A stretch of 64,000 bases of DNA from an uncultured Gemmatimonadota bacterium (GCA_951812955.1 OX638340.1:1792001-1856000), one strand, 5' to 3'; counted from the first letter of the stretch, positions 14,260 to 46,636 are shown. Made by a program: numbers and translations. The notes: generated by a model from the sequence alone, not told the origin.

Positions 14260-14302
14260 ATGACTGCACCCTCACTGAATGACTGTCCCCTCTTGGTATG
14301 AT

Positions 14303-18248: not shown

Positions 18249-18309
18249 TTAGTGATTCTGCCCCGAATGGCTGTGCAACGTATGTCGTACTTCCGGACTG
18301 AGTCAATCA

Positions 18310-18738
18310 TTGAGTGATTCAGGATACCCCGAGCCCACCGCCGGCGCACTGATTCAGGATCCGGAGGGCAGGATCCTGCTGCTCAAGTCCCACAAGTTCA
18401 AAGACCGGTACACCATACCCGGTGGGCATATCGAACTCGGGGAGACTGCGGAGGAGGCACTGCGAAGAGAGATTCGGGAAGAAACCGGGCTCGAGATCTA
18501 TGACGTGGAGTTCCTGCTCTATCAGGATTTTGTTTTTGACGACTCCTTCTGGAAGAAAAAGCACTTTATATTCCTGGATTTCGCCTGCAGGACCGACTGT
18601 ACTGAAGTAGAGCTAAACGAAGAAGCGCAGGATTACATCTGGTCGACCCCGGAAGACGCCCTGACGCTTCCGATTGACCGGTACACGGCCAGGGCTATCG
18701 AGGCCCTGGTGGCCAGGCGGAGTTCGAACGGGAAATGA
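18310..18738 (+). CDS. NUDIX hydrolase
   Basis: Nudix box GGHIELGETAEEALRREIREETGLEI. Confidence 0.75.
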   Translation: MSDSGYPEPTAGALIQDPEGRILLLKSHKFKDRYTIPGGHIELGETAEEALRREIREETGLEIYDVEFLLYQDFVFDDSFWKKKHFIFLDFACRTDCTEVELNEEAQDYIWSTPEDALTLPIDRYTARAIEALVARRSSNGK

Positions 18739-19385: not shown

Positions 19386-19463
19386 ATTCTGTTAAGCGGC
19401 GCCATGGCAGAGGAGATCATCGTAGGAGGCGACCGCGACGGATCAGACCTTGGTGGAGGACCC

Positions 19464-20303
19464 ATGCCGGACTATAACTACCATTTCCATCGCGATGATC
19501 TCAAGGCGGCCCTTGCGTGCCTGGATGAATACGGATTCTGCGTCATCCGGCAACTGATCGACCGGGAAATGGTCGCCGCGCTGAAGGAATCCATCGATCG
19601 GCAGCTGGACCCGGAAGGCGATCTGGCGCCGGCTTCCAACCGGTATCACATGGCCTTCGCCGAAGACAGCGAGCCTGTCTGGGACCTGGTCGAGAACCCG
19701 GATTACAAGCGGTTCATTCACACCGTGCACGGCACAACCGACCTTTGCCTGCATCGCTCCGCGGCCATACTGCGCACGCCGGGCGAGGGAATGGGCCGCT
19801 GGCACCAGGATCACCGGGGGCACATCGCCAGGCCGCAGCACGCCAACGACGTGCTGAACCGGTTTCCCATTCCGAGCGGCGCCTGGCTCTATCTCAATGG
19901 AAGCCATCCCGATCGCAGCGGCATCGCGGTCATCGAGAAATCCCACCATTTGGAGTGGGAAGGCCCCGAGGGTTACATCATGGGACCGAATCGCAGTGGT
20001 ATATATCCGGAGGGCGGTACCCCGGAAACTCCCTACGACGGCATGGCCGTGCCCGGGTGCGTCCCGGTCGTGGCAGATCCCGGGGACCTGATCTGCTTCG
20101 CCGCACTCACCTGGCACGCCAACATGGCCACTCGCGAACGGCGATACTCCTGCGGAATCGGGTTCCGCCCCAAGACCTGGCGCATTGACGCGCCCTGGCC
20201 ATTGCCCGATTCGGCCTTGGCCCTGGCTGAAAGACTCCCCGATCACCTCAAGCATTTTACCGAAGGTTACACGGGGTTTGACGGGGAGTGGAGGGCGGAG
20301 TGA
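19464..20303 (+). CDS. Phytanoyl-CoA dioxygenase (PhyH) family protein
   Basis: ORF trimmed to the ATG at 19464, with a GGTGGAGGA RBS. WHQDHRG...LNGSHPD...TWHAN. Confidence 0.7.
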   Translation: MPDYNYHFHRDDLKAALACLDEYGFCVIRQLIDREMVAALKESIDRQLDPEGDLAPASNRYHMAFAEDSEPVWDLVENPDYKRFIHTVHGTTDLCLHRSAAILRTPGEGMGRWHQDHRGHIARPQHANDVLNRFPIPSGAWLYLNGSHPDRSGIAVIEKSHHLEWEGPEGYIMGPNRSGIYPEGGTPETPYDGMAVPGCVPVVADPGDLICFAALTWHANMATRERRYSCGIGFRPKTWRIDAPWPLPDSALALAERLPDHLKHFTEGYTGFDGEWRAE

Positions 20304-20361
20304 CTCGGCGGAATGGCGTTATTACGTGTACACGCACAAACCAACCTGAGTAAGTCTACCG

Positions 20362-21057
20362 TTGATTTCAACTTTGTTCTTAGATGTCGGAGAGACCATT
20401 CTGGACGCCGAGGCGCAGCAAGACGCATTGACGGAAGTGCACAGAATGGTACTGAACGACTCTGGTTTTTCGTTGACGCAGGATGAATATAGACTGCTGT
20501 ACGAGGAGAAAATCCGGTCTTTCGTCCCCAGTGCAATGCACGCGATTACCTGGCACTTTGCTAGTCCGGACCATACCCTGCATAACGAGATCACCCGCGA
20601 GATTCGTGCGCACTATGGTGAAATCAGGAAAATAGGATGCCAACTCTATCCCGGAGTGGCCGAACTGCTTGAAAAGTTGGCGGATGGTTATTCGCTCGGA
20701 CTTGCCGCAAACGCTCCCGCTTCGGTCACGGACATCCTTGATGATTTAGGAGTGCTGTGCTGGTTCAGCCATACGGACGTATCCGGGAGTATCGGTATCA
20801 AGAAGCCGGACCATCGGTTCTTTGAAACCATCCTTACGCATGCAGACACGCGAGCGTCCGAAGCAATCATGATCGGCGACCGACTCGACAACGACATTAT
20901 ACCGGCCAGGCGTATCGGCATGAAGACGATCTGGGTACGATGGGGCCGCTATAGTATCTTGGAACCCCGCACTCCGGATGAAATCCCCGATAAGACCGTT
21001 ACCGACGTGCGGGAGGTACTGGACGCGGTAACCATGTTAAATTCGAGGTTATGGTAA
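20362..21057 (+). CDS. HAD-like hydrolase with atypical motif I (LDVGET)
   Basis: HAD motifs II-IV are recognisable (GLAANA...; GIKKPD; GDRLDNDI). Motif I reads FLDVGETIL, so the second Asp is replaced by Gly. The TTG start at 20362 is the first in-frame start after a stop. Confidence 0.5.
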   Translation: MISTLFLDVGETILDAEAQQDALTEVHRMVLNDSGFSLTQDEYRLLYEEKIRSFVPSAMHAITWHFASPDHTLHNEITREIRAHYGEIRKIGCQLYPGVAELLEKLADGYSLGLAANAPASVTDILDDLGVLCWFSHTDVSGSIGIKKPDHRFFETILTHADTRASEAIMIGDRLDNDIIPARRIGMKTIWVRWGRYSILEPRTPDEIPDKTVTDVREVLDAVTMLNSRLW

Positions 21058-30185: not shown

Positions 30186-31409
30186 TCAGGAATTTGAAAC
30201 ATTGGGCGGCCGCAACCCGACATATTTGGCCCGCGGCCGAATCAACTGGTCCCTTTCGTACTGCTCGATCGCGTGTCCGATCCAGCCGGCGGTGCGGCCC
30301 AGGGCGAACAGGGCCATGGCGCTTCCTTCGGGCATCTTAAGGACGCGAACCAGCGCCGTAAGGGCCAGGTCGATGTTGTACCTGTCCGGAATGAGCCGGT
30401 GGGTCGTATCGATGATTTCACGGGCAAGCTGCAGATCCTTCGAACCCGGAAATCGATCTTCCAGCTTGTGCAACAGCAGGCTCGCTCTCGGGTCCTCGCC
30501 GCGGTAAACGGCGTGCCCGAACCCTGGAATCTTCTCGCCAAGCCGCAGCCGGTGGGCGATCGCCAGTTCAGTGCTACCGGCCGATTCCACCTCTTGGAAC
30601 AGCGATTCGACGCGCTCGCTGGCCGCGCCGTGCTTATAGCCGCGCAGTGCGGCGAGTCCCGCGCAGACCGCGCTATAGGGCGTCGTACCTGCCGACGCGG
30701 CGCATCGCACCGTGAAGGTCGATACATTCAACTCGTGATCCGCGAACAGTACCAGCGTCGTATTGATCAACTCCGCCGCGCCATCTATATCCGCGGCCCA
30801 GGCCCTTCGCAAGGCCTGGGCGATCCCGCCCATCGGGTCTACGCCCGTGGCCACCCCCGTCATGAACCAGAGAATCCGCATGCCCGTAGCGGCGACCGCG
30901 TCCCTTCGCAGGTCCAGTGCGGCCAGGTCATCCGCCTCCGCAAGGGGCAGCAATGTTTGAAAGCGTTCGACGGGCTTCAGCGACTTCATTTTCAACCAGG
31001 ATTCCCGAAAATCTCTCTGGTAGGTATTTGAGAAAATCGGAAAGGAGAATCGTTTGTCTCCCGTCCAGATCAGTGCAGCGACGCGCTCAAACGATTCTTT
31101 CGCCGCAAGTATCGTCGCGTCGCGCCCTCTGTAAAACAACCTTTCGTCGGTGATCAGGGTAATGGCCGATTCAAGGATGGGATCTCCTGTATGCAAGGCG
31201 CGCTTGACCGCCCAGCCCGGATTCTGGCGGGCTTTCTTACGGGCCTTCAACCGCTCGATATCTTCACTGCGGTACAAACGCGTCCGCCGGCCGTCTCCGC
31301 TTTCTTCGGATCGGATCATGCCCCGGCTGACGTACGCATATAGTGTCGACGGATTGATGTTCAGTACGGAAGCCGCCTCGGTGGATGTCATGTATCTTCG
31401 GCTGTTCAT
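30186..31409 (-). CDS. Excisionase-type HTH domain fused to a citrate synthase-like domain (putative enzyme-derived regulator or divergent citrate synthase)
   Basis: The N-terminus MTSTEAASVLNINPSTLYAYVSRGMIRSEE...RLYRSEDIERL resembles HTH_17/Xis-like. The rest carries a citrate synthase fold with GFGHAVYRGEDPRA and the HELNVSTFTVR motif. Confidence 0.7.
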   Translation of the reverse strand: MNSRRYMTSTEAASVLNINPSTLYAYVSRGMIRSEESGDGRRTRLYRSEDIERLKARKKARQNPGWAVKRALHTGDPILESAITLITDERLFYRGRDATILAAKESFERVAALIWTGDKRFSFPIFSNTYQRDFRESWLKMKSLKPVERFQTLLPLAEADDLAALDLRRDAVAATGMRILWFMTGVATGVDPMGGIAQALRRAWAADIDGAAELINTTLVLFADHELNVSTFTVRCAASAGTTPYSAVCAGLAALRGYKHGAASERVESLFQEVESAGSTELAIAHRLRLGEKIPGFGHAVYRGEDPRASLLLHKLEDRFPGSKDLQLAREIIDTTHRLIPDRYNIDLALTALVRVLKMPEGSAMALFALGRTAGWIGHAIEQYERDQLIRPRAKYVGLRPPNVSNS

Positions 31410-31450
31410 GAATTAGTCCTCTCGAAAATGAGCTGTTTGGCGGACTGGGC

Positions 31451-31519
31451 CCGTGGCGTCACGGACGGGCCTGAGGTGTCAATGGCGGGCGCGTGGCGTC
31501 AATGGCGGGCCCGTGGTGG
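31451..31519. repeat. Three tandem ~20-bp direct repeats (consensus GCGTGGCGTCAATGGCGGGC) in the divergent promoter region
   Basis: Copies CCGTGGCGTCACGGACGGGC, TGAGGTGTCAATGGCGGGC and GCGTGGCGTCAATGGCGGGC plus a partial 4th copy are read directly. The same intergenic region holds an AT-rich imperfect palindrome TTGATAT...ATATCAA at 31598-31640. Confidence 0.6.
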
Positions 31520-31706
31520 TTCCGGCCGCGGACGGTATGTAAGGTGCGCCGGATTTGCGAGGTGCGCCTTCTATTTATCCCAATTCGAAAATAGATGTTG
31601 ATTGATATTTTAATCAATATTGACAATATATCAAAACGCTTTTTTGTTATATACTGACCGGCCAGAGACGCGCAACGTTCAATCTGACTAGAACAGGAGC
31701 ATTGCT

Positions 31707-32785
31707 TTGCATCATATCGCGGTATTGCCCGGTGACGGGATAGGTCCGGAAATTACTCGAGAAGCGGTAAAAGTACTGAAGGTTGTCGGCAGGTACCACC
31801 ACCTGGATCTTGCCTTCTCCCATCATCTCATAGGAGGAGCTTCGATAGACGCCCGTGGCGATGCGCTTTCTAAAGAGGTAGTTTTACATGCAAGCAAAGT
31901 GACGCGGTCCTTTTCGGCGCGGTGGGCGGCCCCAAATGGGACCACCTCGACATGGCAGACCGGGCGGATCAATCCCTTATTCGTTTAAGGCAGGAACTGG
32001 CCGTGTATGCGAATCTAAGGAAATTCAGTTCGTACGCGGGTTTGGAAGACGCGTCGGCGGTCAAAGCCGATCGCATGGACGGGGGCATTGATTTCATCAT
32101 AGTGCGCGAACTTTCCAGTGGCGCGTACTATGGTCGACCGAAATTCATGGAAAAAACGCCCAGGGGTAGAAGGGCCGTCGACACCATCGAGTACTTCGAT
32201 TTTCAGGTTGAACGACTGGCGCGTTACGGATTCGAACTGGCGCGACACAGGCGATGCAAATTGACCTCGATGTCCAAATGGAACGTTTTGGAAACCTCCA
32301 GGCTCTGGCGCGATGTGGTCGAGGAAGTGGCCAAGGATTATCCCGATGTGGATACACGGCACGAAATAATCGACGCTGGTGCGATGAACCTGATCCTGAG
32401 ACCCAGCGAGTACGACGTCATCATTATGCCCAACATGTTCGGCGATATCCTTGGAGATGAGGCAGCTGTCCTGGCCGGCTCGATCGGTATGGTCCCGTCC
32501 GCGGAGATATCCCTGGATAGCACGTCTTTGTACGAGCCCATACACGGGAGCGCCAATGATATCGAGGGGCGGGACATCGCCAATCCCCTGGGGATGATTC
32601 TAAGTGCCTCAATGCTTCTCAGGTATAGCCTCAATTGCCCGGAAGGTGCCGACAACATCGACCAGGCGGTCGAGACTGTGATCTCGAATGGATACAGGAC
32701 GGCCGATATCTGGTCTTCAGAAGATCAGAAGAAAGTATCAACAACGGAAATGGGGGACCTGGTGGCTGAAATTTTGGCCGCGTAG
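31707..32785 (+). pseudogene. 3-isopropylmalate/isocitrate dehydrogenase family gene (LeuB-like) interrupted by a +1 frameshift
   Basis: Two overlapping ORFs, 31707..31988 ([14 protein letters not shown]-terminus, TTG start, GGAG RBS) and 31922..32785 (GGPKWD...GSANDIEGRDIANPLGMILSASMLLRYSL), together give a ~360-aa IPMDH. The frames meet at a TTTT run at 31882-31885. Adding one T would restore ...[23 protein letters not shown], which matches the LeuB consensus. Confidence 0.6.
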
Positions 32786-32817
32786 CCGTATCAGCTTGAT
32801 TACGACAGGAGCCTATC

Positions 32818-33933
32818 ATGTCTTATTCACCCGGACTCAAGGACATCGTCGCGGCGGAAACTCGGCTGAGTCATGTAGATGGAGAAGCCGGCAAACTGGT
32901 CATCGGTGGATATCCGCTCGAAGGGATCGCGGAACGAGCGACGTACGAGGAGATGGCGCACCTACTCTGGCACGGGTCACTGCCTGACGCGGCCGCCCTG
33001 GATCGATTCGCTGGCGAACTGGCCGCCGGCCTCGCGCTATCCGGTACTTCGATCGACATCCTGCGGAACGCCGCGAAGGAACGCCGCCCCGTCATCGACG
33101 CCGTTCGCATGACCGTTGCCTCCCTTCCCTCCACCGACGATGCCGCGGACGCCCGGTCCCTGGTGACCGGATTGCCGATCGTCGTGGCAGCCTACTGGCG
33201 TCTTCTTCACGGGAAAGAACCTGTAGAACCCGACCCCGTCCTCGGTCACGTGGCCAACCTGCTGTACATGCTGCACGGCGAGATTCCCGGAGACGAACGT
33301 GTACGCGCACTCACGACATACCTCAACACCGTGATCGACCACGGCATGAACGCATCTACGTTCGCGGCACGCGTCATTGTGTCCACACGTTCCGACTTCA
33401 TCTCGGCTGTTACGGGCGCCATCGGCGCGCTTAAGGGTCCGTTGCACGGCGGGGCGCCGGGTCCGGTCATTTCCATGCTCGAAGCGATTGGCGACGCTGA
33501 CAACGCTGACGATGCAGAACGATACCTCCGCAAAAAACTTGAATCAGGTGAACGCCTCATGGGTTTCGGACATGCCGTGTATCGCGTTCGAGACCCGCGG
33601 GCCGATGTACTCTCGCGCGCCGCCAGATCCTTTTTCGCCGATGAAGACGAGCTATACGCCCTGGCCCTGCACGTCGAGAAGACCGCTATCGAACTGCTCG
33701 AAGAATACAAGCCAGGTCGGCGTCTGCAGACCAACGTGGAGTTCTATACCGCCCTGCTCCTCCGAGGGCTGGGCCTCCACCCGGACCTGTTCACCCCCAT
33801 GTTCGCCACGGGACGTGTCGCAGGTTGGGTTGCCCATTGCATGGAACAACGGTCCGTTGACCGCATCTTCCGGCCCGAGTCCCGGTATACGGGCATTGAA
33901 TCAAATCGCTGGACGCCGGTCGAAGATCGATGA
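32818..33933 (+). CDS. Citrate synthase / 2-methylcitrate synthase family enzyme
   Basis: GFGHAVYRVRDPRA, GPLHGGA and the HGMNASTFAARV motif; 371 aa. Confidence 0.8.
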   Translation: MSYSPGLKDIVAAETRLSHVDGEAGKLVIGGYPLEGIAERATYEEMAHLLWHGSLPDAAALDRFAGELAAGLALSGTSIDILRNAAKERRPVIDAVRMTVASLPSTDDAADARSLVTGLPIVVAAYWRLLHGKEPVEPDPVLGHVANLLYMLHGEIPGDERVRALTTYLNTVIDHGMNASTFAARVIVSTRSDFISAVTGAIGALKGPLHGGAPGPVISMLEAIGDADNADDAERYLRKKLESGERLMGFGHAVYRVRDPRADVLSRAARSFFADEDELYALALHVEKTAIELLEEYKPGRRLQTNVEFYTALLLRGLGLHPDLFTPMFATGRVAGWVAHCMEQRSVDRIFRPESRYTGIESNRWTPVEDR

Positions 33934-34029
33934 GCGACGGCAGTTTCTCAGTAGGGAATCGACTTTATCCTAATGGGGCCTTGTCAGTACTTCGGGGTTT
34001 TCTATAGTGCTAGCTATACGGTGCAATCC

Positions 34030-34049
34030 TATTGTACAATTGTACAATA
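34030..34049. promoter_or_regulatory. Perfect 20-bp palindrome TATTGTACAATTGTACAATA (two tandem TTGTACAA boxes)
   Basis: Read directly from the sequence, in the AT-rich intergenic region upstream of the PhyH gene at 34295. The TTGTACAA core recurs at 50788 and 56745. Confidence 0.5.
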
Positions 34050-34152
34050 CAAATCCGAATTGTCAGGTTTGATTCAAGTCCTTGATCGGTCCGAACGGAA
34101 TATACTGGCATTTAGCATTTCATGTTTTCATTTTAGTTGACGTCTGAGCGAC

Positions 34153-34247
34153 TGGCGCATCGGTCGACGGCTGACAAATTGGTCGGCGACTGGCGCAATG
34201 GTCGGCGGCATGCGCAATGGTCGGCGGCATGCGCAATGGTCGGCGGC
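34153..34247. repeat. Five tandem 19-bp direct repeats (TGGCGCAATGGTCGGCGGC-like), ending about 50 nt upstream of the PhyH start
   Basis: Units at 34153, 34172, 34191, 34210 and 34229; the last three are near-identical (A/TGCGCAATGGTCGGCGGC). They share a CAATGG...CGGC core with the 31451-31519 array. Confidence 0.65.
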
Positions 34248-34294
34248 TGGCACTTTCGAAAATCCCAGTATCGATTCCAGGAAAGGAATCCCCC

Positions 34295-35185
34295 ATGGCG
34301 ATGGTCGACATGAAACAGATCCACGGTCTGGAAGATGTCACGGGGCTGCTGACGCGTCCCGACGAACTACGACAACGTGCCGTGGAGCAAGGTTGTCTGT
34401 TCTTTCGCGGACTTCTCGATCCGGGGAGCGTCCTTGAGGTCCGGCGGCAGGTGCTCGGCGTGTGCCGGGACCACGGGTGGCTCGCGGATGAATCGGACCT
34501 GATGGATGGCGTCGCGAATCCCGGAATCCGCGTAGGTGAAAGCGGCATCCCTAGCTGGCAGGCCTTTTACGATGACGTGCAGCGGATCCGCGATTTTCAC
34601 GCGCTCGCACTGGACCCGTCGATGATCGGGATGCTGGAAGCGCTGTTCGGAGAAACGGTACTGGCCCACAGCCGGAATATCTGCAGGCTGGTGTTCCCGG
34701 ATATGAACGCCCACTCGACACCGCCCCACCAGGACAACTACTTCATCGGCGGATCGGACGAGACGTGGACGGCCTGGATTCCCCTGGGCGACTGTCCCGA
34801 GGAACTCGGCGGACTCGCCGTCAACCGGGGATCCCATCGCAGGGGCATGCTGGAGACGACCGAAGGCGTCGGACCCGGCGGGCGGCAGGTGTACGTCGAA
34901 GACGATTCCACCTGGGTCGGCGGCGACTATGAATGTGGCGACGTGATCATTCTCCACAGCCTGACGATCCACCAGGGCCGGGACAACGTGACATCTGACC
35001 GCCTCAGGATTTCGACCGACTACCGTTACCAGCCAAGAAGCCACCCGGTCCGGGAGGATTCACTCCAACCACACATGAACTGGTTGACCTGGGACGAGAT
35101 ATACGAACAGTGGGATGAGGAAGATCCGGTGAAGTACTACTGGAAGGGCTGGGACTTGGACGTGGTCACGCGGGAGCCTCGATAG
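34295..35185 (+). CDS. Phytanoyl-CoA dioxygenase (PhyH) family protein
   Basis: ORF 34217.. trimmed to the ATG at 34295 (AGGAAAGGAA RBS). The upstream part of the ORF is simply the translated repeat array. PPHQDNYF...GSHRRG motifs are present. Confidence 0.7.
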   Translation: MAMVDMKQIHGLEDVTGLLTRPDELRQRAVEQGCLFFRGLLDPGSVLEVRRQVLGVCRDHGWLADESDLMDGVANPGIRVGESGIPSWQAFYDDVQRIRDFHALALDPSMIGMLEALFGETVLAHSRNICRLVFPDMNAHSTPPHQDNYFIGGSDETWTAWIPLGDCPEELGGLAVNRGSHRRGMLETTEGVGPGGRQVYVEDDSTWVGGDYECGDVIILHSLTIHQGRDNVTSDRLRISTDYRYQPRSHPVREDSLQPHMNWLTWDEIYEQWDEEDPVKYYWKGWDLDVVTREPR

Positions 35186-35219
35186 GCGTCGCAGGGAGAG
35201 CAACCGGAGAAACGCCGCT

Positions 35220-36350
35220 GTGCGCATCGTGGGAGCCGCGCTGATCCGCTACTTGAACATGCCCAATTCCTTCTCCAAAACCGTCAAGCACCTGATTCGT
35301 CTCTTCCTCAGTAAACCGATGGCGGCACCGGTTGATATGACGGGACGCCACGTAATCGTAACCGGCGCGTCCCCTGGTTCGCTCGGGTACGAAACCGCGC
35401 GGGTCCTTGCGGGTTGGGGCGCGACGGTCGCAGCAACCTGCGTGCGCAATGTCCCTCTCATGGAAGCGACATTAAAAGACGACTTGCTTAAGCTAGGCGC
35501 CAGTGAGGACAACATCACGGCCCACAGGTTGGACCTCAGCGATCCGGACAGCGTAAACGACTTCGCCGCATGGTACCGCGACAGACACCAGGGTAAGCTC
35601 CACGTACTGGTCAACAACGCGGGCATCCACCGGAAGACCTTCGCACCACGCAAGCAGCCGCCGCTGGCCGAAGATGGCTTCGAAATACACTGGCGGACCA
35701 ACTACCTCGGCGCTTTTCACCTGACCTGGGTCCTGCTGCCCTTCCTGCAACGGACAGGACTCGAAAGCGGCGACGCACGCGTTGTCAACGTGTCCTCCGG
35801 CCTGCACGAACGGGTCGGGAACGAGGACCTTTTCGATGAGGGGACGCGCCACGGAGTGCCGCACCGCGAGGAGCCACGACAAGGAAGACCGCGCGACGGG
35901 GAGCCGCTCCAAGGGGAGCCGCGCTCCGATATGCCGCGCTACCACTCCTGGGACGCCTACGGAAAGTCGAAACTGGCGATGATCCACATGGCATTTGAGA
36001 TCGAAAGACGATTCGCCGAATCCCACAATCTGCACGCGGTGGCTGTGCATCCGGGTGTCGTGATGACCAACCTGACCCTTCCACAGGCGTTTCGTGGACT
36101 GTTGGGCAAGGCATTGCATCGAGTCAGTACCGCGCTGACCTCACTGGTCCTGCTGTCTCCGAATGCCGGGGCGCAGACCATTGTGATGTGTGCGAGCCAG
36201 CGGCAACTGCAAGGTGGGAAATACTACGAGCGCTGCGCCGTCGGCGAGCCGTCCGCGGACAGCCAGGACGAGACCGTGGCAAAACGCCTTTGGGACCTGT
36301 CGGAACTGTGGGCCGGGACGCTCGCACAGTCAGGTGGAGATGCCCGTTGA
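35220..36350 (+). CDS. Short-chain dehydrogenase/reductase (SDR) with an internal Pro/Arg/Glu-rich insertion
   Basis: VIVTGASPGSLGYETAR (TGxxxGxG), NNAG and YGKSK (YxxxK) motifs. There is an unusual insertion HREEPRQGRPRDGEPLQGEPRSD with a GGGGAGCCGC nucleotide repeat. The GTG start at 35220 is uncertain; alternative ATGs lie at 35259 and 35337. Confidence 0.65.
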   Translation: MRIVGAALIRYLNMPNSFSKTVKHLIRLFLSKPMAAPVDMTGRHVIVTGASPGSLGYETARVLAGWGATVAATCVRNVPLMEATLKDDLLKLGASEDNITAHRLDLSDPDSVNDFAAWYRDRHQGKLHVLVNNAGIHRKTFAPRKQPPLAEDGFEIHWRTNYLGAFHLTWVLLPFLQRTGLESGDARVVNVSSGLHERVGNEDLFDEGTRHGVPHREEPRQGRPRDGEPLQGEPRSDMPRYHSWDAYGKSKLAMIHMAFEIERRFAESHNLHAVAVHPGVVMTNLTLPQAFRGLLGKALHRVSTALTSLVLLSPNAGAQTIVMCASQRQLQGGKYYERCAVGEPSADSQDETVAKRLWDLSELWAGTLAQSGGDAR

Positions 36351-36495
36351 CGATTCATGAAGTCCGTACCGGTCCCATCATGTTCAGCTTGACTGCCAGG
36401 ATTCACAAACTGCACGGCATTCGCGGCTCACACGACTCTCACGGCACCCACGGCACGCAGAGTAAAACCGGAATCAATCCACAAGGACATGCAAT

Positions 36496-37257
36496 TTGGA
36501 CAGCGAACTACTGAAACGGGGATTCGCACCTCGGCCGCTGACGGACGCGCAACGCAGCGCGCTGGACACCGATGGCTTCATCGTGCTGGAGGAGGTCATC
36601 TCGCCAGACTGGCTCTCCGAACTGCGCCATGCATTCGATGAGATATTTGACAGCGAGGGCGATAGAGCCGGTGAGGAGGTCTCCCAGATGGAAGGGGTGC
36701 GCCGGCTTGCCGATCTGGTCAACAAGGGATCGGTATTCGATGCGGTTTACCTGCAGCCCGAGCTTTTGACGGCCGTCTACCATGTCCTGCAGAGGCCGTT
36801 CAAACTGCACTCGCTCAACGGGCACGACCCGCTTCCCAGCAACGGGTTACAGGTGCTGCACGCCGATTGGGGCCAACCTGCCGAGCCCGGCGGGCCGTAT
36901 CATGTCGTTAACTCTTTGTGGATGCTCGACGATTTCACCCTCGCCAACGGTGCGTCACGCTGCGTGCCGGGCAGCCACCTGAAACCCGGCAGGATCGGCG
37001 ACCTCGTAACGGACCGCCTGGCGGACCACCCCGACCAGGTACACCTGACGGGCCGTGCGGGATCGGTTGCCGTATTCAACGGCAGCCTCTGGCACAGCTC
37101 GTATGTCAACCTCAGCGGTGCCCCTCGCCGGACCCTGCACTGCGCCTTCATAGCCCGCGAACACCCGCAACAGACTAATCAGCGGGAGTATCTGCGGCCC
37201 GAGACCGCCCAACGGCTATCCCCACTGGCGCGCTACATCCTCGACGTCCCTCCGTAA
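36496..37257 (+). CDS. Phytanoyl-CoA dioxygenase (PhyH) family protein
   Basis: VLHADWG...PGSHLKPG...SLWHSS motifs. TTG start with an AAGGA RBS. Confidence 0.7.
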   Translation: MDSELLKRGFAPRPLTDAQRSALDTDGFIVLEEVISPDWLSELRHAFDEIFDSEGDRAGEEVSQMEGVRRLADLVNKGSVFDAVYLQPELLTAVYHVLQRPFKLHSLNGHDPLPSNGLQVLHADWGQPAEPGGPYHVVNSLWMLDDFTLANGASRCVPGSHLKPGRIGDLVTDRLADHPDQVHLTGRAGSVAVFNGSLWHSSYVNLSGAPRRTLHCAFIAREHPQQTNQREYLRPETAQRLSPLARYILDVPP

Positions 37258-37496
37258 CACGATTACACGGTAGTTTGTTAATTTTTGTAGGGGAATTAGT
37301 ATGTAAAAACAACAATACGGCAGGCAATAGAAGTTGGGTCTAGTTGTTCCCACCCGTATTGTCCCCAAGTGCTGTACTTTCAACGTACATTCAGTCAATT
37401 AAAAAAATCGTGACCCACCTCTTTAATTCTGATGTTCATTCTCCTTCGGGTGATGTTTGGTTTGATTTCAGTCGACATTGTATCCTTACGTGCATT

Positions 37497-39572
37497 CTAG
37501 TTCACTAACTCAAATACATGCTTAACACTACCGTCCGGTTTTAACACGAGCCCAAACCACTTTTCCAACTTATGTGGGTATACACTTTCTTTGGAATCCC
37601 GGTGAAATTTCTCCTCTAACACCTCCACGGTAGATCTACTACAGTAAATAAACAGTCCTATAGGTAAACCTGGGAACAAAGCACGAACTGTCTGGCTCTT
37701 CTTATTTAATAAATGCCGATTACAAATCCGATTGATATTTTTGTTTATAGTTTTACAAACATCGTCAGACAAGGTTATCAAGAAAAGCCCAAGGTCGATT
37801 TTCAATGGATCGGGGGAGGTTTCCAATTCCTTCAAGATGCTTCCCAAGGGCGTACCAACCAATCTTGTCAGTATGCCATCTGGAGTCGGTATTCCGTCTA
37901 TGCCGTCCCTCCTGACCGCCATTGCAGTATCGAGATGCACTGAGAAATCGTCATCAATTAACATCAAGTCAATATCGTCTCTAAGCCATAGGTTATGTCT
38001 TAGGTGATAGGACAGCAACATATGCTCATGACTCGCCATCAGACGCTCGCCAAATCGTGCCCGTAACTCAAGGTAACTTAAAAACCATAGAGGCGTAGAT
38101 AACATTTCTGATATCGCATCGAGTGAAAAAACGTCGGTGACAAGTGGAGGTAAAATCTGAGTAGTTGACTTGTATTCTAAAAACTGTCTCAACTGAAAAG
38201 CCAACGCCGGGTAATGGTCCGCGATGATTGCTACAGGAAAAATAACCTTCTGAGATTCTTCTATACGGATTACCTCGTTGTTCTTGGTATATAGACTTAC
38301 GGACTGATCTCCGAGGAGTTTAGCACACTCAAATGACTGCTCTACTGCATCTTGAATCGCCATCCTAAAGTCGGATCTTAACACTCGATCGTTCCCTCTT
38401 CGAGATTCCAGTGTTAGCCTTTTTGATTTCGATTGCACCAAAACAACCCGGTCGCCAAATATCACCAAGACATCAATCTCTCCAAGTGTGTGCCCTTTGG
38501 TCTTTCGTAACTCGACGTTTTTATACACTCGATCAGAACCAAAGACATGAACAAGTCTATCATATGTAAAGCTCTCCGTGAAATCCCCTCGATGTGTAAG
38601 TGCTGTTGGTGCATACAAACTATCAGTGCACATCCAATAGAACGGTGTTTCATAAAACGCTTCCGTTAATCCGTAATACTGCAAGAGTACGTATTTATCT
38701 ACATCTCTACGTATGAACGGGTAGATATAGGCTTTGTTAAAGTCATTGATAGTTGAGAAGCCAGCATTTCTTTCGCAAGAAGGTAAAGTAAATGCGTTTA
38801 CAAATGCTTGAACGTCTTCTGTAGGAAATCCTATATAGGAAGCAAGTTCAGTGCAGGAAAAGGTAAAGAAAGGTAAGACCGCCCGATCCTTAGCAGGCCC
38901 TTTTATTTGGTCGCTCAAGACTGTTTCTAAACTCCGGTTTAGGACGTAAGGAATCCCATCACACACCGCCTTTCCAACTACCAAATCAACTGATTTGTTC
39001 TGAGAAAGCCAGTCGGAATCGAGACTGTATTTTGTCAATGCTAGATCACGGTATTGAAAGGGATATGCAGACTCGCCTGCGTAGAAAATGGGTTCCCTAA
39101 GGGATTCCCCGGTAGAGAATGGATTTGCATTAGGGACAGACCCGCCGACTACTCTCCGCTGCATCAACTTCAACGTAGGTTGCACCATAGTTAAGTGCAA
39201 TTCATCCAACAGTTCCGCGGACTTCTTGATGTAATCATTAAGAACTGTAGGTGTTGGCATGGAAAAGTCGATAGGGCCTCGCATCATGAGACCGATTAGC
39301 GTGGTGATTTCGGTACGGATTAGCTGCGAATGGGATCGCCATTGAAGAAGTTCGTCGGAATTTAGTTCATCCTTGAAACCGACGACATTGTCCCGCAGTG
39401 AAATAAAAGCGATTGCGTGAATAAAACCTACGGAGAGGCACAATGCAGCCAGGTCATCAAACACAGACTGTTCTGAGCGCATATAAACGATCCTGGGCTG
39501 TAGCAGACAATTCCAAATTGCGTCTATTGGATTCGAAAGCCAAGAGTTGGATTCTGAATCCGAACCGTTCAT
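37497..39572 (-). CDS. Large (691 aa) protein with a central NERD-like PD-(D/E)xK nuclease motif; N- and C-terminal regions unassigned
   Basis: FGSDRVYKNVELRKTKGHTLGEIDVLVIFGDRVVLVQSKSK at residues ~343-384 fits the NERD / PD-(D/E)xK pattern (GE..hh...E-h-D-hhhh...hhhh-Q/E-x-K). No Walker A motif. AT-rich codon usage. Confidence 0.55.
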   Translation of the reverse strand: MNGSDSESNSWLSNPIDAIWNCLLQPRIVYMRSEQSVFDDLAALCLSVGFIHAIAFISLRDNVVGFKDELNSDELLQWRSHSQLIRTEITTLIGLMMRGPIDFSMPTPTVLNDYIKKSAELLDELHLTMVQPTLKLMQRRVVGGSVPNANPFSTGESLREPIFYAGESAYPFQYRDLALTKYSLDSDWLSQNKSVDLVVGKAVCDGIPYVLNRSLETVLSDQIKGPAKDRAVLPFFTFSCTELASYIGFPTEDVQAFVNAFTLPSCERNAGFSTINDFNKAYIYPFIRRDVDKYVLLQYYGLTEAFYETPFYWMCTDSLYAPTALTHRGDFTESFTYDRLVHVFGSDRVYKNVELRKTKGHTLGEIDVLVIFGDRVVLVQSKSKRLTLESRRGNDRVLRSDFRMAIQDAVEQSFECAKLLGDQSVSLYTKNNEVIRIEESQKVIFPVAIIADHYPALAFQLRQFLEYKSTTQILPPLVTDVFSLDAISEMLSTPLWFLSYLELRARFGERLMASHEHMLLSYHLRHNLWLRDDIDLMLIDDDFSVHLDTAMAVRRDGIDGIPTPDGILTRLVGTPLGSILKELETSPDPLKIDLGLFLITLSDDVCKTINKNINRICNRHLLNKKSQTVRALFPGLPIGLFIYCSRSTVEVLEEKFHRDSKESVYPHKLEKWFGLVLKPDGSVKHVFELVN

Positions 39573-39708
39573 CCATGGCTTTTAACTTTAGATTCTCCAG
39601 ATAGCTGTTTCGGATAATTAAACAAGTCAGTTCGCCGGAAACATCTCGTGCAACCCGCGCTGATACACCGTTGGTGACTACAGCTTCACCGTCGGTGTGA
39701 ACGCACCT

Positions 39709-39957
39709 TTACCGGTTGTTGTGATTATCCACGGGTTTGTTTTCTTCTGAAGCGTGGTGGTCATCGCCTAACGGGATTAAATCCTTCGATATAGCCAGCG
39801 AACCGCCTATTAGAGCCATGAGTGGAGACTTTACGACTTCGTAAGCGTCCTCCGCTGTCATTCCTCCGCTCCAACACATCGCAACGAAGATGATTATAAG
39901 CGAAGAGTAACCTAAACCCACAAGGACCAGTACATTCTTCCGCCACGGAACCTTCAT
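39709..39957 (-). CDS. Small 2-TM membrane protein preceding the NERD-like gene
   Basis: ORF 39709..39990 trimmed to the second of two adjacent ATGs (GGAGGA RBS). It carries the hydrophobic helices VLVLVGLGYSSLIIIFVAMCW and LMALIGGSLAI. Same strand and same low-GC composition as the NERD gene. Confidence 0.45.
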   Translation of the reverse strand: MKVPWRKNVLVLVGLGYSSLIIIFVAMCWSGGMTAEDAYEVVKSPLMALIGGSLAISKDLIPLGDDHHASEENKPVDNHNNR

Positions 39958-40029
39958 CATATCCTCCTTTTGGGTATTCTCCCAATTCACATAATATGTT
40001 TGACAATCGCTTTATAATGCTCCGAGCAA

Positions 40030-41445
40030 CTAACCAAACAACTCCTGCACCATTCCCCGCGCCCGATCGATCACGGTTTCGAGACAGCCGGGTGCTAGCT
40101 TGGCCCAGTAGGTGACATCTTCGTTGGCCTCGTGTCCACCGCGGGCATATGCCTCCCTCGTCGGCAGGTAACCGACATAGTGCGTCGTGAGGTGTGCCGG
40201 AAACAGATAGGAAGCTGGCGAGTTTACTTTAAGCGACAGTTGTCCTTCCACAAAGGGCTCACCGGGGAGGCCTACAATACAAAGATTACCGATGCGCAAG
40301 GCCTGTATCTCATAGCTGAACTCGCCGTCCCTCTGCCTGCATAGTTCGACGCTGCGGGTCGATGCCGCCCGAAACCAGCGCGGCTCCACTTGACCGTTCT
40401 CTTCGCGCGGCGGTTCCGGATGCTCAGTGAGAATCGCATCGACTTCGCGCAGTCGTTCGTCCGATATCTCGCGAAAGGGCAGTCTGATCTTTTCTATCCT
40501 TGTATCTAGCGCAGCATCGCCGGCGAACGTCATGTTGCGCATGATACGTTCGCTCAGACCGGATAATCCTCGCCCCATACGCCGGTGGTCCGGCTTAAAA
40601 TCGGGGTCGAAGGGGTGCCAGGGGTTGATGTTGCCGCAACATCCGTTGACGACCAACGGCACGGAATCCGGATCGAAAATCTGCTGCATCTCCCGGGACC
40701 AGGCGCCGGGCCAATCCGCCGACGCGGCCATGAAGGTCTCCTCGTTTCCGTATGCATTGACCGGATGACACGTGTAGTGCAGGAGAAAGGCCAGCGGTTT
40801 CGAATTCATATCCTGGACGCAGCACACGCCTACCTCCGGGTCCATCGGCCCTTCCAGGTAGCACACATCCGAGATCCCGAAGGGCTGCCGCTCCCGACCA
40901 AGGGGTCTGGGCATAACTATGGTACCGTCCCTTCGAACGCCGCGGCGGTTAAAAGCCAGGTCGCCCAACACGCCGCGGCCCAGACCGATGCGTGCCGGTT
41001 GTAGCCTGCCGGCTGCCTCGACCGCGGCCTCAACGGCAGCGGCTGCGGCCCGGTCGCCATAGGCGCGTTCGGCCCCCCGCAGATACTCCGTTTCCTCGCT
41101 AGTCTCCATTGGAAAATCCGAATCCAGCATGAAGTAACCGAGGCTCGGGGCGGAATGCGTCTGCGTCGCCTGGACCATGATGGCGTCTCGTTCTATGCCC
41201 GTCTGCTCGCTGATGGCCGCACGGATCCGGTCTGTGTATTCACCGGTGACAATGGTGAGATCCAGGATCACGATGCAGACGCGCCGCCCATCCGCTTCGA
41301 AAACGATGGCCTTGGCAAAGAGCGGATCCAAAACGGCCTGGGTCGGACGGTGGTCACCGGCTCCGCTGCCCGCCAGATGCGTCCCCTCCGAAGGGGATAT
41401 GTCGATCATTGCCGCACCGGCGCTCAGCTGGTTCGACTCGTTCAT
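40030..41445 (-). CDS. Neutral/alkaline ceramidase family protein
   Basis: ORF trimmed to the ATG at 41445 (AAAGGAAAG RBS). AIMVQATQTHSAPSLGY and LLHYTCHPVNAYG resemble neutral-ceramidase catalytic-domain motifs (THTHSGP / AIHPVS) as remembered. Confidence 0.55.
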   Translation of the reverse strand: MNESNQLSAGAAMIDISPSEGTHLAGSGAGDHRPTQAVLDPLFAKAIVFEADGRRVCIVILDLTIVTGEYTDRIRAAISEQTGIERDAIMVQATQTHSAPSLGYFMLDSDFPMETSEETEYLRGAERAYGDRAAAAAVEAAVEAAGRLQPARIGLGRGVLGDLAFNRRGVRRDGTIVMPRPLGRERQPFGISDVCYLEGPMDPEVGVCCVQDMNSKPLAFLLHYTCHPVNAYGNEETFMAASADWPGAWSREMQQIFDPDSVPLVVNGCCGNINPWHPFDPDFKPDHRRMGRGLSGLSERIMRNMTFAGDAALDTRIEKIRLPFREISDERLREVDAILTEHPEPPREENGQVEPRWFRAASTRSVELCRQRDGEFSYEIQALRIGNLCIVGLPGEPFVEGQLSLKVNSPASYLFPAHLTTHYVGYLPTREAYARGGHEANEDVTYWAKLAPGCLETVIDRARGMVQELFG

Positions 41446-41796
41446 GGCTTTCCTTTCGCAGTCTGAAGAGTAACCCGTGGGGCGTAACCCAGGGACCCGC
41501 GCGGGGATTATCCCGTGTGGGGAGGATCCCAGTCCATGTGGGGAGTAACTCGTAACGTACAGACTATGGCACCAGTACCGTTTCGTCAACGCCGTTCAGC
41601 CTTGACAGACGCGTGTATCTTACTTGTATCACAGTGTACGAAGATATGGGTTAAACGGCGCGGTCCAGTGGAGTACTCGAGCAACAGGCGAACGGAGCGC
41701 CGCGTATTAGCCGCCGGCCAGTTGATGAAGACCGACATGCATGATGAAGACTAACGCACAGAATGGTCACACCATCTGAGAAAGGACTGGTCAATC

Positions 41797-42936
41797 ATGA
41801 TTGAATTGCTCGGCATCGGCCACTTTTTTGAACTTACACGGTCGGAAGCTATTATGGGGTTTTTCACCCCGCTGATCGTCTATGCCGTGTTTTTCCTGGT
41901 GCAGCTCATCCTGCCCGGGCGGAGGGTTCCCGGTTACGTCATCAATCCGGAGACGGGTAAACCGCGCAATTACCGGCTCAACGGCATGCTCGTGTTCCTG
42001 ATCATGCTGATCGTCTGGGCGTTCGAACTCACCGGGATGCCCCACGACTGGTTCTTCCGGTCCTCGATCTACGCTGTGGCCGGCGGAACGGTTTTCGCCA
42101 TTATCTTTACCATAATCGCGACATTTACCCAGCCTGAAGGCAAGGTGAAGAGCCGGTTCCTGGCATGTTGGTTCGGCCGGGCCCAGGAGATTTCGTTCTT
42201 CAACGAGCGTATCGACGTTAAGATGTACATGTACGTTGTCGGCGGGTCGATGCTGTCGCTAAACGCCCTATCCGGGGCCGTGTACCACTACCAGGTATTT
42301 GGAGAGAACGCCAACCCAGGCGTTTTCATCTATGCGGGTTTCTTCACGTTCTACATCCTCGATTACTTCGTCTTTGAGCGCGTGCAACTCTACACCTACG
42401 ACCTGATCCACGAGAATGTGGGCTTCAAGCTGATCTGGGGCTGTCTCGTGGTCTACGGATGGCTATTCATCCTCCCGCTTTGGGGCATGGCCGCCTACCC
42501 GAACCCAGGCTTCTCACCGGCATGGACGAACTTCTGGCTGATTGGCACCTCAGCACTGTTCCTGTTGGGATGGAGCATTTCCCGCGGCGCCAACCTGCAG
42601 AAGTATACGTTTAAAAGGTGGCCCGAACGAAAGTTCCTGGGGCTCATCGAACCGAAATACATTCAGGCTGGCGACCGCAAGATACTCTACAGCGGCCTGT
42701 GGGGCGTCGCCCGCCATCTCAACTACATGGGCGAGGGCTTCCTTTCCCTGTCCATCGCCCTGATATTCGGCTATTTCACCAATTTCTGGGCCTGGACCTA
42801 CCTCCTCTTCATCGTCTCGATGTTCTCCTACCGTCAACTCGATGACGACAGGCACTGCGCCGAGAAATACGGTACCAAAAAGTGGGCGGAATACCAGGAG
42901 AAGGTGAAGTACCGGATCGTGCCGGGGATTTATTGA
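41797..42936 (+). CDS. ERG4/ERG24 family sterol reductase-like integral membrane protein
   Basis: GLWGVARHLNYMGEGFLSLSIAL matches the sterol-reductase signature (RHPNYxGE), and roughly 8 TM helices are predicted; 379 aa. A GAAAGGA RBS lies upstream. Confidence 0.6.
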   Translation: MIELLGIGHFFELTRSEAIMGFFTPLIVYAVFFLVQLILPGRRVPGYVINPETGKPRNYRLNGMLVFLIMLIVWAFELTGMPHDWFFRSSIYAVAGGTVFAIIFTIIATFTQPEGKVKSRFLACWFGRAQEISFFNERIDVKMYMYVVGGSMLSLNALSGAVYHYQVFGENANPGVFIYAGFFTFYILDYFVFERVQLYTYDLIHENVGFKLIWGCLVVYGWLFILPLWGMAAYPNPGFSPAWTNFWLIGTSALFLLGWSISRGANLQKYTFKRWPERKFLGLIEPKYIQAGDRKILYSGLWGVARHLNYMGEGFLSLSIALIFGYFTNFWAWTYLLFIVSMFSYRQLDDDRHCAEKYGTKKWAEYQEKVKYRIVPGIY

Positions 42937-43400
42937 GCGAGGTTATGAGAAACGCTAGTTCAGATTGCTTCCAAATCGTAGCGATATAGATCAGCGGACC
43001 AGGGAAGAGGGCATACCCTCTCAAGCGCTGCCGTCTAGCGCCATCCAAAGGCACCTGTCCGGCCGCCTTACAGAGAAGAAGTAAAATGACCCTGTGTCCG
43101 CCTCTGCATGGGCACCGGGGTTGTATTAAACCGGTTTGTCGACGAGCTTTTTATCCTCCTCGCCCGGTTGGTACTCCTTACATATCCTGGTGACCGGTTT
43201 TACCCGAACCTGACCAGACTCATCTTCCTCTGTTTATCACATGAAGCATACTGATCTACGGTTGCGCTGCTGTCTGCGAATGCTATATTGCCTCGTCGAC
43301 AACGTAAACGCACGCGACCCAAATGCACCCGAACCAAACGCACCTGAAGAAAATACACTCATAGCAAATGCACGCACCGAACAGGAAACGTTAGGATAGT

Positions 43401-45771: not shown

Positions 45772-46509
45772 TCAGTTCTTCCTCGCCACATGCCGATCTT
45801 CATACACACCCTTCAGAAACTTCTTCGGATTGAATTCTTCGGGCATGTAATGCCATGCTGTACTGTAGCGCGTGCGATGGCTGTGATTATCATAGGCGCC
45901 GTGCAGCAGATTTGCGGAAAACAGCACGACCGTCCCCGCGGGGATGACCAGGTCCACCGCCTGCGCTTCATCGACCTTCGTCCAGCTGCCATGGCGGCTT
46001 AATTCGCTGCAGTGCTCGACAATCTCGCCTATCCGGTGGCTGCCGGGCACTACCCGCAGACAACCATTCTCCACGTCTGCATCTTCCAGGTAAATTCCGC
46101 AGCTGACAATACGATCCGTGTCGGTCCCAAAATAGAAATTGTCCTGGTGCCAGCCCGTCGACGTGCCGCCATTGGGCAGCTTCGGGAAGAACTTGGTACC
46201 GAACACGTCGATATCTCCACCAATCAGATCGGCCACACGGTCCACAATCGCCGGCTCGCGCGCCAGTTCCAGCACACGGTCGTCGACCACGCAAACCCCC
46301 TGGACTTTGTGCAACAAACCCGCCCGAGGTTCGCCTCGCTCGTCCAACTCGAGCGCCCAGTGGGGTGTCTGCTCTTTCAATTTGCTTCCCTCGGCGACCA
46401 TTTCATCGAACACCTGCTTGTACCAGTCCAGTCGCTCACCTTGAATGAGGGCTTCAAAAACGAGATAGCCATCTTCTCGAAACTGCAGTATCTGTTCGCT
46501 AGTCAACAT
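45772..46509 (-). CDS. Phytanoyl-CoA dioxygenase (PhyH) family protein
   Basis: ORF trimmed to the ATG at 46509 (GAGG RBS). GWHQDNFYF...PGSHR...LLHGA motifs. Confidence 0.7.
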   Translation of the reverse strand: MLTSEQILQFREDGYLVFEALIQGERLDWYKQVFDEMVAEGSKLKEQTPHWALELDERGEPRAGLLHKVQGVCVVDDRVLELAREPAIVDRVADLIGGDIDVFGTKFFPKLPNGGTSTGWHQDNFYFGTDTDRIVSCGIYLEDADVENGCLRVVPGSHRIGEIVEHCSELSRHGSWTKVDEAQAVDLVIPAGTVVLFSANLLHGAYDNHSHRTRYSTAWHYMPEEFNPKKFLKGVYEDRHVARKN

Positions 46510-46636
46510 GAGAACCTCATTAGAATCCGCGTCCTTCGCCAACTAGCGCTCCAGCAGTCGGCGACCGGCGGCGGCCATCTTCCCCGCAATCCGCTTATCT
46601 TCCTCGCGCTCCGACAAGTAGCAACAGGCCGCGGGA

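Follow-up and report, generated by a model that had tools for sequence, protein, structure and literature searches.

A citrate synthase-fold protein with a helix-turn-helix domain as probable regulator of a divergent leuB-citrate synthase operon beside a separable PhyH-SDR-PhyH block in an uncultured Gemmatimonadota bacterium

Introduction

In Bacillus subtilis, the gene of a minor citrate synthase, citA, is reportedly accompanied by citR, a divergent gene encoding its dedicated regulator, as Jin and Sonenshein are said to have described in 1994. A related arrangement is present in the 64,000-nt stretch of DNA from an uncultured Gemmatimonadota bacterium analysed here (GCA_951812955.1 OX638340.1:1792001-1856000, in the following called the window), in which the region at 30186-37257 was studied. 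There, the gene of a dimer-type citrate synthase (CS) lies divergent from that of a presumed regulator, and the encoded CS has its best match in the PDB with B. subtilis citrate synthase 1 (2c6x, 307 bits). While CitR is of the LysR type, the presumed regulator of the window is itself a CS paralogue carrying a helix-turn-helix (HTH) of the MerR/excisionase type, and its putative operator is a different one. This protein is called HTH-CS in the following.

With the MerR family, HTH-CS shares an N-terminal winged HTH, a presumably dimeric state and a palindromic putative operator that overlaps divergent promoters. Unlike in MerR proteins, an enzyme fold of 330 amino acids (aa) would provide both dimerisation and ligand binding, and the MerR-type promoter geometry is not general. 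A further likeness exists to trigger enzymes such as PutA and BirA and to Caulobacter CitA, where the fold of a metabolic enzyme has been linked to the regulation of genes or of the cell cycle. Caulobacter CitA moonlights in regulation without a DNA-binding domain and independently of DNA binding (PMC7083601), whereas HTH-CS possesses a domain of the DNA-binding type, and its catalytic site is likely retained as a sensor. Literature searches revealed neither a trigger enzyme built on a citrate synthase and an HTH nor a description of an HTH-citrate synthase regulator, and the databases name members of this family only 'citrate synthase family protein'. Finally, the standalone CS of the window resembles Mycobacterium tuberculosis CitA (Rv0889c; PRK12350) in passing the NF009005 model (347.4 bits, cutoff 332), and structures of M. 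tuberculosis and M. bovis CitA belong to the top matches of the HTH-CS enzyme domain, at an identity of just ~25-27%. In contrast to the locus studied here, where an HTH partner is present, none has been reported for M. tuberculosis CitA.

A previous reading of the window, made from the sequence alone, had described the region as a compact cluster of two CS-family genes, an isopropylmalate dehydrogenase (IPMDH)-family gene, a short-chain dehydrogenase/reductase (SDR) gene and two PhyH oxygenase genes, and had proposed a dedicated pathway under shared regulatory repeats. The comparison with related loci confirms this observation in part and gives partial support to the interpretation. In our view, the region is probably a mosaic, composed of an HTH-CS/CS divergon with a captured leuB gene and of an unrelated PhyH-SDR-PhyH operon, and one of the two supposed condensing enzymes, HTH-CS, is most likely a transcription factor.

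Results and discussion

Domain structure and conservation of HTH-CS

The gene calls and the Pfam matches agree that six open reading frames (ORFs) of the families named before exist in the region (Table 1). The family assignment also holds for both CS-type genes, but the first of the supposed two citrate synthases is an HTH fusion encoded on the opposite strand. Its N-terminus matches MerR_1 (34.0 bits, cutoff 21.6) and HTH_17 (32.1 bits, cutoff 27) at aa 6-62, followed by the Citrate_synt domain (PF00285, 207 bits) at aa 77-393. The AlphaFold model, with a predicted local distance difference test (pLDDT) value of 79.6, comprises a winged HTH at aa ~6-47 in the order strand-helix-helix-hairpin, linker helices at 48-73 and a complete CS fold at ~77-400. 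The small effector domain or coiled coil of MerR proteins is absent, as the linker helices are followed by the complete CS fold. A Foldseek search with this model led to citrate and methylcitrate synthases with a target template modelling (TM) score of ~0.7.

In an alignment of 15 sequences, the citrate-/oxaloacetate-binding and catalytic positions of HTH-CS (His225, His260, His299, Arg308, Asp347, Arg372 and Arg391/393) were invariant or nearly so, with the catalytic triad H225/H299/D347 being invariant throughout. The pocket residues expected of a CS homologue are hence kept. Residues of the HTH, such as STLYAYVSRG, were conserved as strongly as this active site. When the N-terminal 120 aa of HTH-CS alone were used as a query, 1347 cluster representatives (clustered at 50% identity) were retrieved with E<=1e-10.

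Pairing of HTH-CS with a divergent synthase gene

The surroundings of HTH-CS were compared in ~100 related loci (labelled L001 and so on). A one-genome-per-species scan yielded 597 HTH-CS homologues, and 80 of these loci were fetched. The upstream sequence was usable in 78 HTH-CS loci, and the operator scans comprised 86 loci with 1.19 Mb. In ~70 of the 78 evaluable loci, a standalone CS gene lies divergently upstream of HTH-CS, usually across a gap of 40-300 nt, and its product is 40-68% identical to the standalone CS of the window. The HTH-CS loci span Chloroflexota, Acidobacteriota, Gemmatimonadota, Actinomycetota, Alpha-, Beta-, Gamma- and Deltaproteobacteria, Binatia and others. Among the loci lacking such a CS gene, four (L006, L021, L038 and L060) carry in the divergent position the gene of an HMGL-family synthase of ~440-460 aa, together with the same operator. 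Close homologues of this partner are labelled citrate (Re)-synthase or 2-phosphinomethylmalate synthase by JGI. Judged from these sequence comparisons, the HTH-CS/CS pair appears to be a widespread regulator-target pair, belonging to a family for which no published description was found, and HTH-CS is a probable regulator of the divergent operon.

In four loci of Chloroflexota (L009, L018, L022 and L032), a short threonine/serine-dehydratase-like gene encoding ~320 aa was observed between the operator and HTH-CS, ~1 kb ahead of HTH-CS and co-directional with it. Its product does not reach the cutoffs of the IlvA and 3-hydroxyaspartate ammonia-lyase models, and may provide the regulated synthase with a 2-oxoacid, for example oxaloacetate.

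The conserved putative operator

Between HTH-CS and the divergent gene, a 22-bp palindrome with the near-invariant consensus TCAATnTTGAT-N6-ATCAA was found, and the fuller element common to the intergenic regions reads roughly (T)TGTCAAT-n-TTGATT-N5-AATCAAT-AT. The exact pattern TCAATNTTGAT-N6-ATCAA occurred once per locus in 51 of the 86 HTH-CS loci, with a constant orientation relative to HTH-CS. With the relaxed pattern TCAA-NN-TTGA-N6-9-TCAA, 79 sites in the same orientation were obtained, distributed over 78 of the 86 loci, and each of the 15 matches on the reverse strand lay within ~15 nt of one of these sites. In all loci in which its position was read, the operator stands directly upstream of HTH-CS or of a co-directional gene ahead of HTH-CS. 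In the window, its core (31602-31623) is located 84 nt before the start of leuB and ~190 nt before that of HTH-CS, and a pattern scan of the 64 kb detected no further copy, including none ahead of PhyH1. In L045, a second near-perfect copy was observed at 6382-6403, 2.5 kb downstream of HTH-CS, where no informative adjoining ORF was found; this copy could stem from the duplication of a piece of promoter or mark an extra member of the regulon.

A MerR-style promoter, consisting of a -35-like hexamer, a 19-nt spacer containing the dyad and a -10-like hexamer, was found by strict criteria at 13 of the 79 sites. TTGTCA preceded the dyad at 29 sites, and a -10-like hexamer at 19 nt was present at 13. 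A MerR-like geometry is thus seen in some loci, and the strict promoter model covers a minority of the sites.

It is assumed that the genes at 30186-33933 (Unit A) form a regulator-target divergon. HTH-CS would be an obligate dimer through its CS fold, with one winged HTH at each N-terminus, both being presented to the palindrome. It would bind the operator at 31602-31634, overlapping the divergent promoters, and would thereby control, in a positive or a negative sense, the transcription of leuB-CS as well as that of the HTH-CS gene itself. The probable signal would be oxaloacetate, acetyl-CoA or citrate in the fully conserved active site of HTH-CS. The target in most bacteria would be the citrate synthase gene alone, and in the sponge-associated clade of Gemmatimonadota a leuB-type gene would have been inserted ahead of it.

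Table 1. Position of the genes and other elements in the window.
Feature	Position (nt)	Strand	Domain match or remark
HTH-CS ORF	30186-31409	-	Pfam MerR_1/HTH_17 and Citrate_synt
Conserved putative operator	31602-31634	-	sole copy in the window; TCAATATTGATTAAAATATCAA on the - strand, overlapping TCAATATTGACAATATATCAA on the + strand
leuB-like 3-isopropylmalate dehydrogenase gene	31707-32785	+	1-nt deletion between 31886 and 31887
Iso_dh ORF (C-terminal part of leuB)	31922-32785	+	Pfam Iso_dh
Standalone CS	32818-33933	+	Pfam Citrate_synt
20-nt tandem array, 3.5 copies	31447-31516		between operator and start of HTH-CS
CS-PhyH1 spacer, 361 nt	33934-34294		sigma-70-like site at 33981-34008, 19-nt array, no HTH-CS operator
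19-nt tandem array, 5.5 copies	34148-34251		in the CS-PhyH1 spacer
PhyH1 ORF as called	34217-35185	+	Pfam PhyH
SDR	35220-36350	+	Pfam adh_short; PRK06197-like
PhyH2	36496-37257	+	Pfam PhyH
519-aa weak ceramidase-N-like protein (-) and ERG4/ERG24-family reductase (+)	40030-42936		commonly syntenic with the PhyH-SDR-PhyH block
PhyH-family matches in the window	2456-3322, 19404-20303, 34295-35185, 36496-37257, 45772-46542, 62942-63736		

Two independently inherited units

The nearest relatives of the locus originate from sponge-associated metagenomes and from metagenome-assembled genomes (MAGs) labelled Gemmatimonadetes, as for example L007 (isolate IRC1_bin_16) with 91% identity; an exact-sequence look-up of the window CS returned no record. 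In this sponge-associated Gemmatimonadota clade alone, leuB, PhyH1, SDR and PhyH2 co-occur with HTH-CS. In the HTH-CS loci outside the clade, LeuB was found in none and the PhyH/SDR matches never exceeded 67 bits.

Within the clade, the two blocks of genes part in both directions. The 736-kb scaffold L102 contains HTH-CS, LeuB and CS but no PhyH or SDR gene; the genes that come next are of the STAS and polyketide synthase (PKS) types. In L100, PhyH1-SDR lies directly beside a C-terminal HTH-CS remnant of 49 aa, with LeuB and CS being deleted. In L002, L003 and L004, LeuB is missing and CS is reduced to its last 106 codons, while HTH-CS and PhyH-SDR-PhyH are intact; the same deletion is present in L003, a 7.4-kb MAG scaffold (GCA_028818875.1), and in the 3.5-Mb contig behind L002. 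Since the modules A and B are inherited independently, a single pathway of six genes is not supported. Of the synteny that the sequence-only reading proposed to search for in related genomes, the HTH-CS/leuB/CS trio is conserved within the clade, whereas the linkage of all six genes is not.

In L102, the stretch behind the trio (13587-20636) encodes STAS-domain proteins, a type I PKS of 2349 aa and a B12-radical SAM protein.

The 361-nt spacer between CS and PhyH1 forms the boundary of the two blocks. Its 19-nt array and two further insertions are specific to the window relative to L001 and L007. No terminator was predicted between CS and PhyH1, and scans of the region for Rfam families, tRNAs and terminators found nothing. 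The tandem arrays, which had been regarded as shared regulatory repeats, are real, and their consensus units have, by reading, a GGCG(T)CAATGG core in common. At the site of the first array, though, L007 contains a different 17-nt array (7915-7985), L001 two short copies and L002 none, and the 19-nt array is found in none of L001, L007 and L002. The 20-nt unit of the window and the 17-nt unit of L007 have GGCCCGT in common. As orthologous loci do without the arrays or carry others, their role as shared regulatory elements was rejected; their behaviour is that of rapidly changing minisatellites of leader sequences and not that of a conserved common operator. Further short arrays were observed at 43306-43373 and 60205-60264 of the window.

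The PhyH-SDR-PhyH block

PhyH1 probably starts at 34295 (MAMVDMKQ, as in the relatives), giving a gene at 34295-35185, and since this start is the probable one, the 19-nt array would lie upstream of PhyH1 and not inside it. PhyH1 and PhyH2 scored 54 and 79 bits on PF05721 (cutoff 22) and contain the HxD motifs H171-Q-D173 and H122-A-D124, respectively; candidates for the distal His, identified by eye, are 'LTIHQG' in PhyH1 and 'SLWHSS' in PhyH2. The SDR (adh_short, 83.9 bits) shows a variant Gly motif, TGASPGSLG, together with Y247GKSK and a low-complexity insertion of ~45 aa. All three proteins stay far below any equivalog cutoff. PF05721 and the HxD motif are shared with described PhyH dioxygenases such as phytanoyl-CoA hydroxylase, ectoine hydroxylase and PtlH. 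On the PtlH model, however, 69 bits were reached (cutoff 550), and on the ectoine hydroxylase model 33 bits (cutoff 336).

The window contains at least five clear and one weak PhyH gene (Table 1), which corresponds to ~1 per 10 kb. As PhyH genes are that dense, two of them beside any given gene are weak evidence for a linkage. For sponge symbionts, among them Poribacteria, an expansion of PhyH genes is reported (PMC3909097).

The synteny of the block with the ceramidase-like and ERG4/ERG24-family genes was seen in L001, L002, L007, L087-L089, L106 and L107. In L087-L089, PhyH1-SDR-PhyH2 is followed by the 519-aa ceramidase-N-like gene and then by an ERG4/ERG24-like gene or the gene of a 770-aa protein. 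The neighbours of the block in relatives also include steroid-5-alpha-reductase-like and methyltransferase genes. Because of these ceramidase-like, sterol-reductase-like, steroid-5-alpha-reductase-like and methyltransferase neighbours, a lipid-like substrate of PhyH-SDR-PhyH is proposed with low confidence. Accepting this, the genes at 34295-37257 (Unit B) would form a separately promoted operon that belongs with the ceramidase-like and sterol-reductase-like neighbours, and would most likely serve to hydroxylate and oxidise a lipid-like substrate.

Downstream of PhyH2, a 2.8-kb insertion of low G+C content was observed at 37258-40029 (44.6% in 38001-40000 compared to ~58% around it). It encodes a 691-aa NERD-domain protein (37497-39572, - strand) and a small ORF (39709-39990, - strand), and parts PhyH2 from the 519-aa gene, while the two are directly adjacent in L001, L002, L007 and L087-L089. 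In L106, a DDE transposase is found at the junction of PhyH2 and the 519-aa gene. Elsewhere in the window, two tandem copies of DUF2961 (76-2390) and sulfatase, HAD, APH and FG-GAP genes were detected; together with PhyH, such genes make up a repertoire that is typically found in symbionts of sponges.

The leuB gene and the standalone citrate synthase

The Iso_dh ORF as called encodes the C-terminal 287 aa alone (profile positions 72-348). The first 60 codons of leuB lie in another frame beginning at 31707, and in the alignment with L007 and L001, the window lacks a single base at 31886/7, which splits the gene. The reconstructed LeuB reached 429.2 bits on TIGR00169 (cutoff 353.2), similar to its orthologue in L007 with 425.4 bits. 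The next best model, TIGR02088 for the archaeal isopropylmalate/isohomocitrate dehydrogenase subfamily, gave 267 bits (cutoff 410), and the rival models for tartrate dehydrogenase (230 bits), homoisocitrate dehydrogenase (242 bits) and isocitrate dehydrogenase (<=202 bits) all remained below their cutoffs. The best 33 PDB matches were all IPMDHs, with ~52% identity to 3u1h, and R95, R105, R134, Y141, K191, D223, D247 and D251 were invariant compared to two PDB IPMDH sequences. In contrast to a usual leuB, the gene of the window is frameshifted, has the gene of the presumed regulator on one side and a CS gene on the other, and shows clade-specific substitutions in the substrate loops.

For the sequence-only reading, a robust LeuB assignment combined with the lack of another leuB in the genome would have pointed to a simple leucine-biosynthesis gene, and the first of these two points is what the equivalog model indicates. 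Its view that the region is not a tricarboxylic acid (TCA) cycle or leucine module stands in so far as the HTH-CS/leuB/CS trio sits outside any leu or TCA operon, but not with regard to leuB itself, which scores as LeuB. Aconitase and LeuCD had been described as absent, and indeed neither domain, nor LeuA, was found among the ~47 larger ORFs scanned over the window.

The standalone CS (PF00285, 361.6 bits, cutoff 27) starts 32 nt downstream of leuB and is a dimer-type enzyme of the CitA/PRK12350 class. With the motifs DH176GMNAST, LH210GG, GFGH252, DPR261 and NVE308FY, the His/His/acidic triad and the Arg ligands are present, so that here, too, the catalytic and ligand residues of the pocket are kept, with Glu in the place of Asp. 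This Glu308 (NVEFY) replaces the catalytic Asp (NVDFY) of most citrate synthases; 2c6x has the same substitution.

For leuB, a ratio of non-synonymous to synonymous substitution rates (dN/dS) of 0.10-0.11 was determined against L001 and L007, and the gene has been under purifying selection. For this reason, the frameshift in the window may be either very recent or an assembly error, the latter being favoured as far as the two can be told apart. Frameshifts were also found in leuB and CS of L001, in leuB of L106 and in PhyH1 and SDR of L107, which are contigs with long-read-style names (ctg..._NNx_l), whereas the frames are intact in L007 and L101, contigs with SPAdes/MEGAHIT-style names, and also in L102 and L105. 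Since different genes are hit in the long-read-named contigs and the short-read-named ones are intact, the frameshifts look like indel errors. A recurrent pseudogenisation of leuB and CS, considered from the frameshifts in the window, L001 and L106, was withdrawn, because the breaks of L107 hit PhyH1 and SDR. As gene losses, the deletions in L002-L004 and L100 alone are robust. In the window, an ORF with FG-GAP repeats (51982-53196) overlaps one without a Pfam match (53024-54007) on the same strand in a different frame; the two might be one gene split by a frameshift, and in that case they would be informative on the rate of indel errors in the assembly.

An alternative explanation of Unit A would be that leuB and CS form a clade-specific two-enzyme unit under HTH-CS, in which the LeuB-like enzyme would have gained a new 2-hydroxyacid substrate connected with what the CitA-type synthase produces, with the PhyH and SDR genes being unrelated neighbours. 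The LeuB of the trio is represented by no fewer than 20 protein clusters with 78-94% identity, and no other LeuB is more than 57% identical. In the contexts read (L101-L107), it always lies between HTH-CS and CS and not within a leu operon, and among all HTH-CS loci this position is confined to the one sponge-associated clade. Conserved clade-specific changes are found in active-site loops next to catalytic residues (TSMSKWNVLE instead of TSVDKANVLE, GDILGDEA instead of GDILSDEA), and further loop changes include the RELSSGAYYG segment and the segment opposite RPEKGLLGIR; besides, leuB and CS were lost together in L002 and L100. Because the trio is stable in the clade and the active-site loops are changed, a dedicated leuB-CS function is possible, albeit with a low probability. 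Against such a unit stand the score well above the LeuB equivalog cutoff, the IPMDH identity of all 33 best PDB matches and the invariant catalytic Arg, Tyr, Lys and Asp, and an identity of ~50-55% to LeuBs from other phyla is what orthologues normally show. Moreover, the products of citrate-type synthases are tertiary alcohols, which need an isomerase that is absent here, and outside the clade the HTH-CS/CS pair occurs without leuB. Taken together, we regard this two-enzyme unit as unlikely.

Weighing the regulatory role of HTH-CS

The conserved active site could also indicate that HTH-CS is a second active citrate synthase isozyme, with an HTH that is vestigial or unrelated to the transcription of the neighbouring gene. 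In favour of this stand the complete CS fold and the invariance or near-invariance of all residues that bind citrate or oxaloacetate or take part in catalysis. In Streptomyces coelicolor, the divergent pair sco5831/sco5832 has been treated as two putative citrate synthases (PMC12323332), which is taken as a lead only, sco5831 being at most a candidate HTH-CS. The strong conservation of the HTH, equal to that of the active site, and the 22-bp palindrome, which is found with HTH-CS in different phyla and always in one orientation, argue against an isozyme, as do the replacement of the partner by a non-homologous, Re-type-like synthase and the intact HTH-CS in L002 despite the deletion of its CS partner. 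A mere isozyme is therefore considered improbable.

Similarly improbable is one pathway of six genes for the synthesis or breakdown of an alkylcitrate- or alkylmalate-like hydroxy-acid, in which the CS-family proteins condense, the IPMDH-like enzyme oxidatively decarboxylates and SDR and PhyH tailor the product: the genes are adjacent and, except for HTH-CS, co-oriented in the window, L007, L101 and L104-L107, without a predicted terminator between CS and PhyH1 and with purifying selection on all of them, but the blocks part both ways, their boundary is a variable spacer with a promoter-like site and no operator, one 'condensing enzyme' carries an HTH and appears regulator-like across phyla, PhyH genes abound in the window and no isomerase is present.

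Some points weigh against the mosaic of a regulatory Unit A and an unrelated Unit B. Most members of the clade (L007, L101 and L104-L107) have the two units side by side, and read-through from CS into PhyH1 is possible. Due to its intact catalytic triad, HTH-CS may primarily be an enzyme. Its DNA binding, and the palindrome as its site, are deduced from sequence; the strict MerR-type promoter geometry applies to a minority of the operator sites; and the identity of the HMGL partners as Re-citrate synthases stems from database names, i.e. is of annotation level. Nonetheless, the mosaic with HTH-CS as a regulator remains the probable reading. Its domain content, the synteny counts, the conservation of the operator, the assignment of LeuB and the separate inheritance of the two units are results, while the DNA binding, the ligand, the sign of the regulation and the substrate of Unit B are inferred.

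Conclusions

The chances are about even that HTH-CS represents an undescribed pan-bacterial class of one-component regulators, in which a whole CS fold acts as sensor and which controls an accessory or main CS gene of the Si type or Re-like type via a 22-bp palindrome. With an HTH, an operator and a divergent target that are all conserved, the family, which comprises at least ~1300 clusters at 50% identity from many phyla, shows the hallmarks of an enzyme-built transcription factor. If this is true, the entry into the TCA cycle would be coupled to the level of oxaloacetate, acetyl-CoA or citrate, and in the sponge-associated Gemmatimonadota the HTH-CS regulon would have captured a divergent leuB.

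The six-gene cluster fails as a candidate for a novel pathway, which spares effort on a false lead, and the part worth pursuing is the HTH-CS family with its conserved operator. If confirmed, the finding would correct metabolic reconstructions that count HTH-CS genes as extra citrate synthases and would provide a ready pair of operator and sensor for the biosensing of oxaloacetate, acetyl-CoA or citrate. Furthermore, it would explain the control of citrate synthase expression in groups without the regulators of the model organisms, among them Chloroflexota, Acidobacteriota and Gemmatimonadota.

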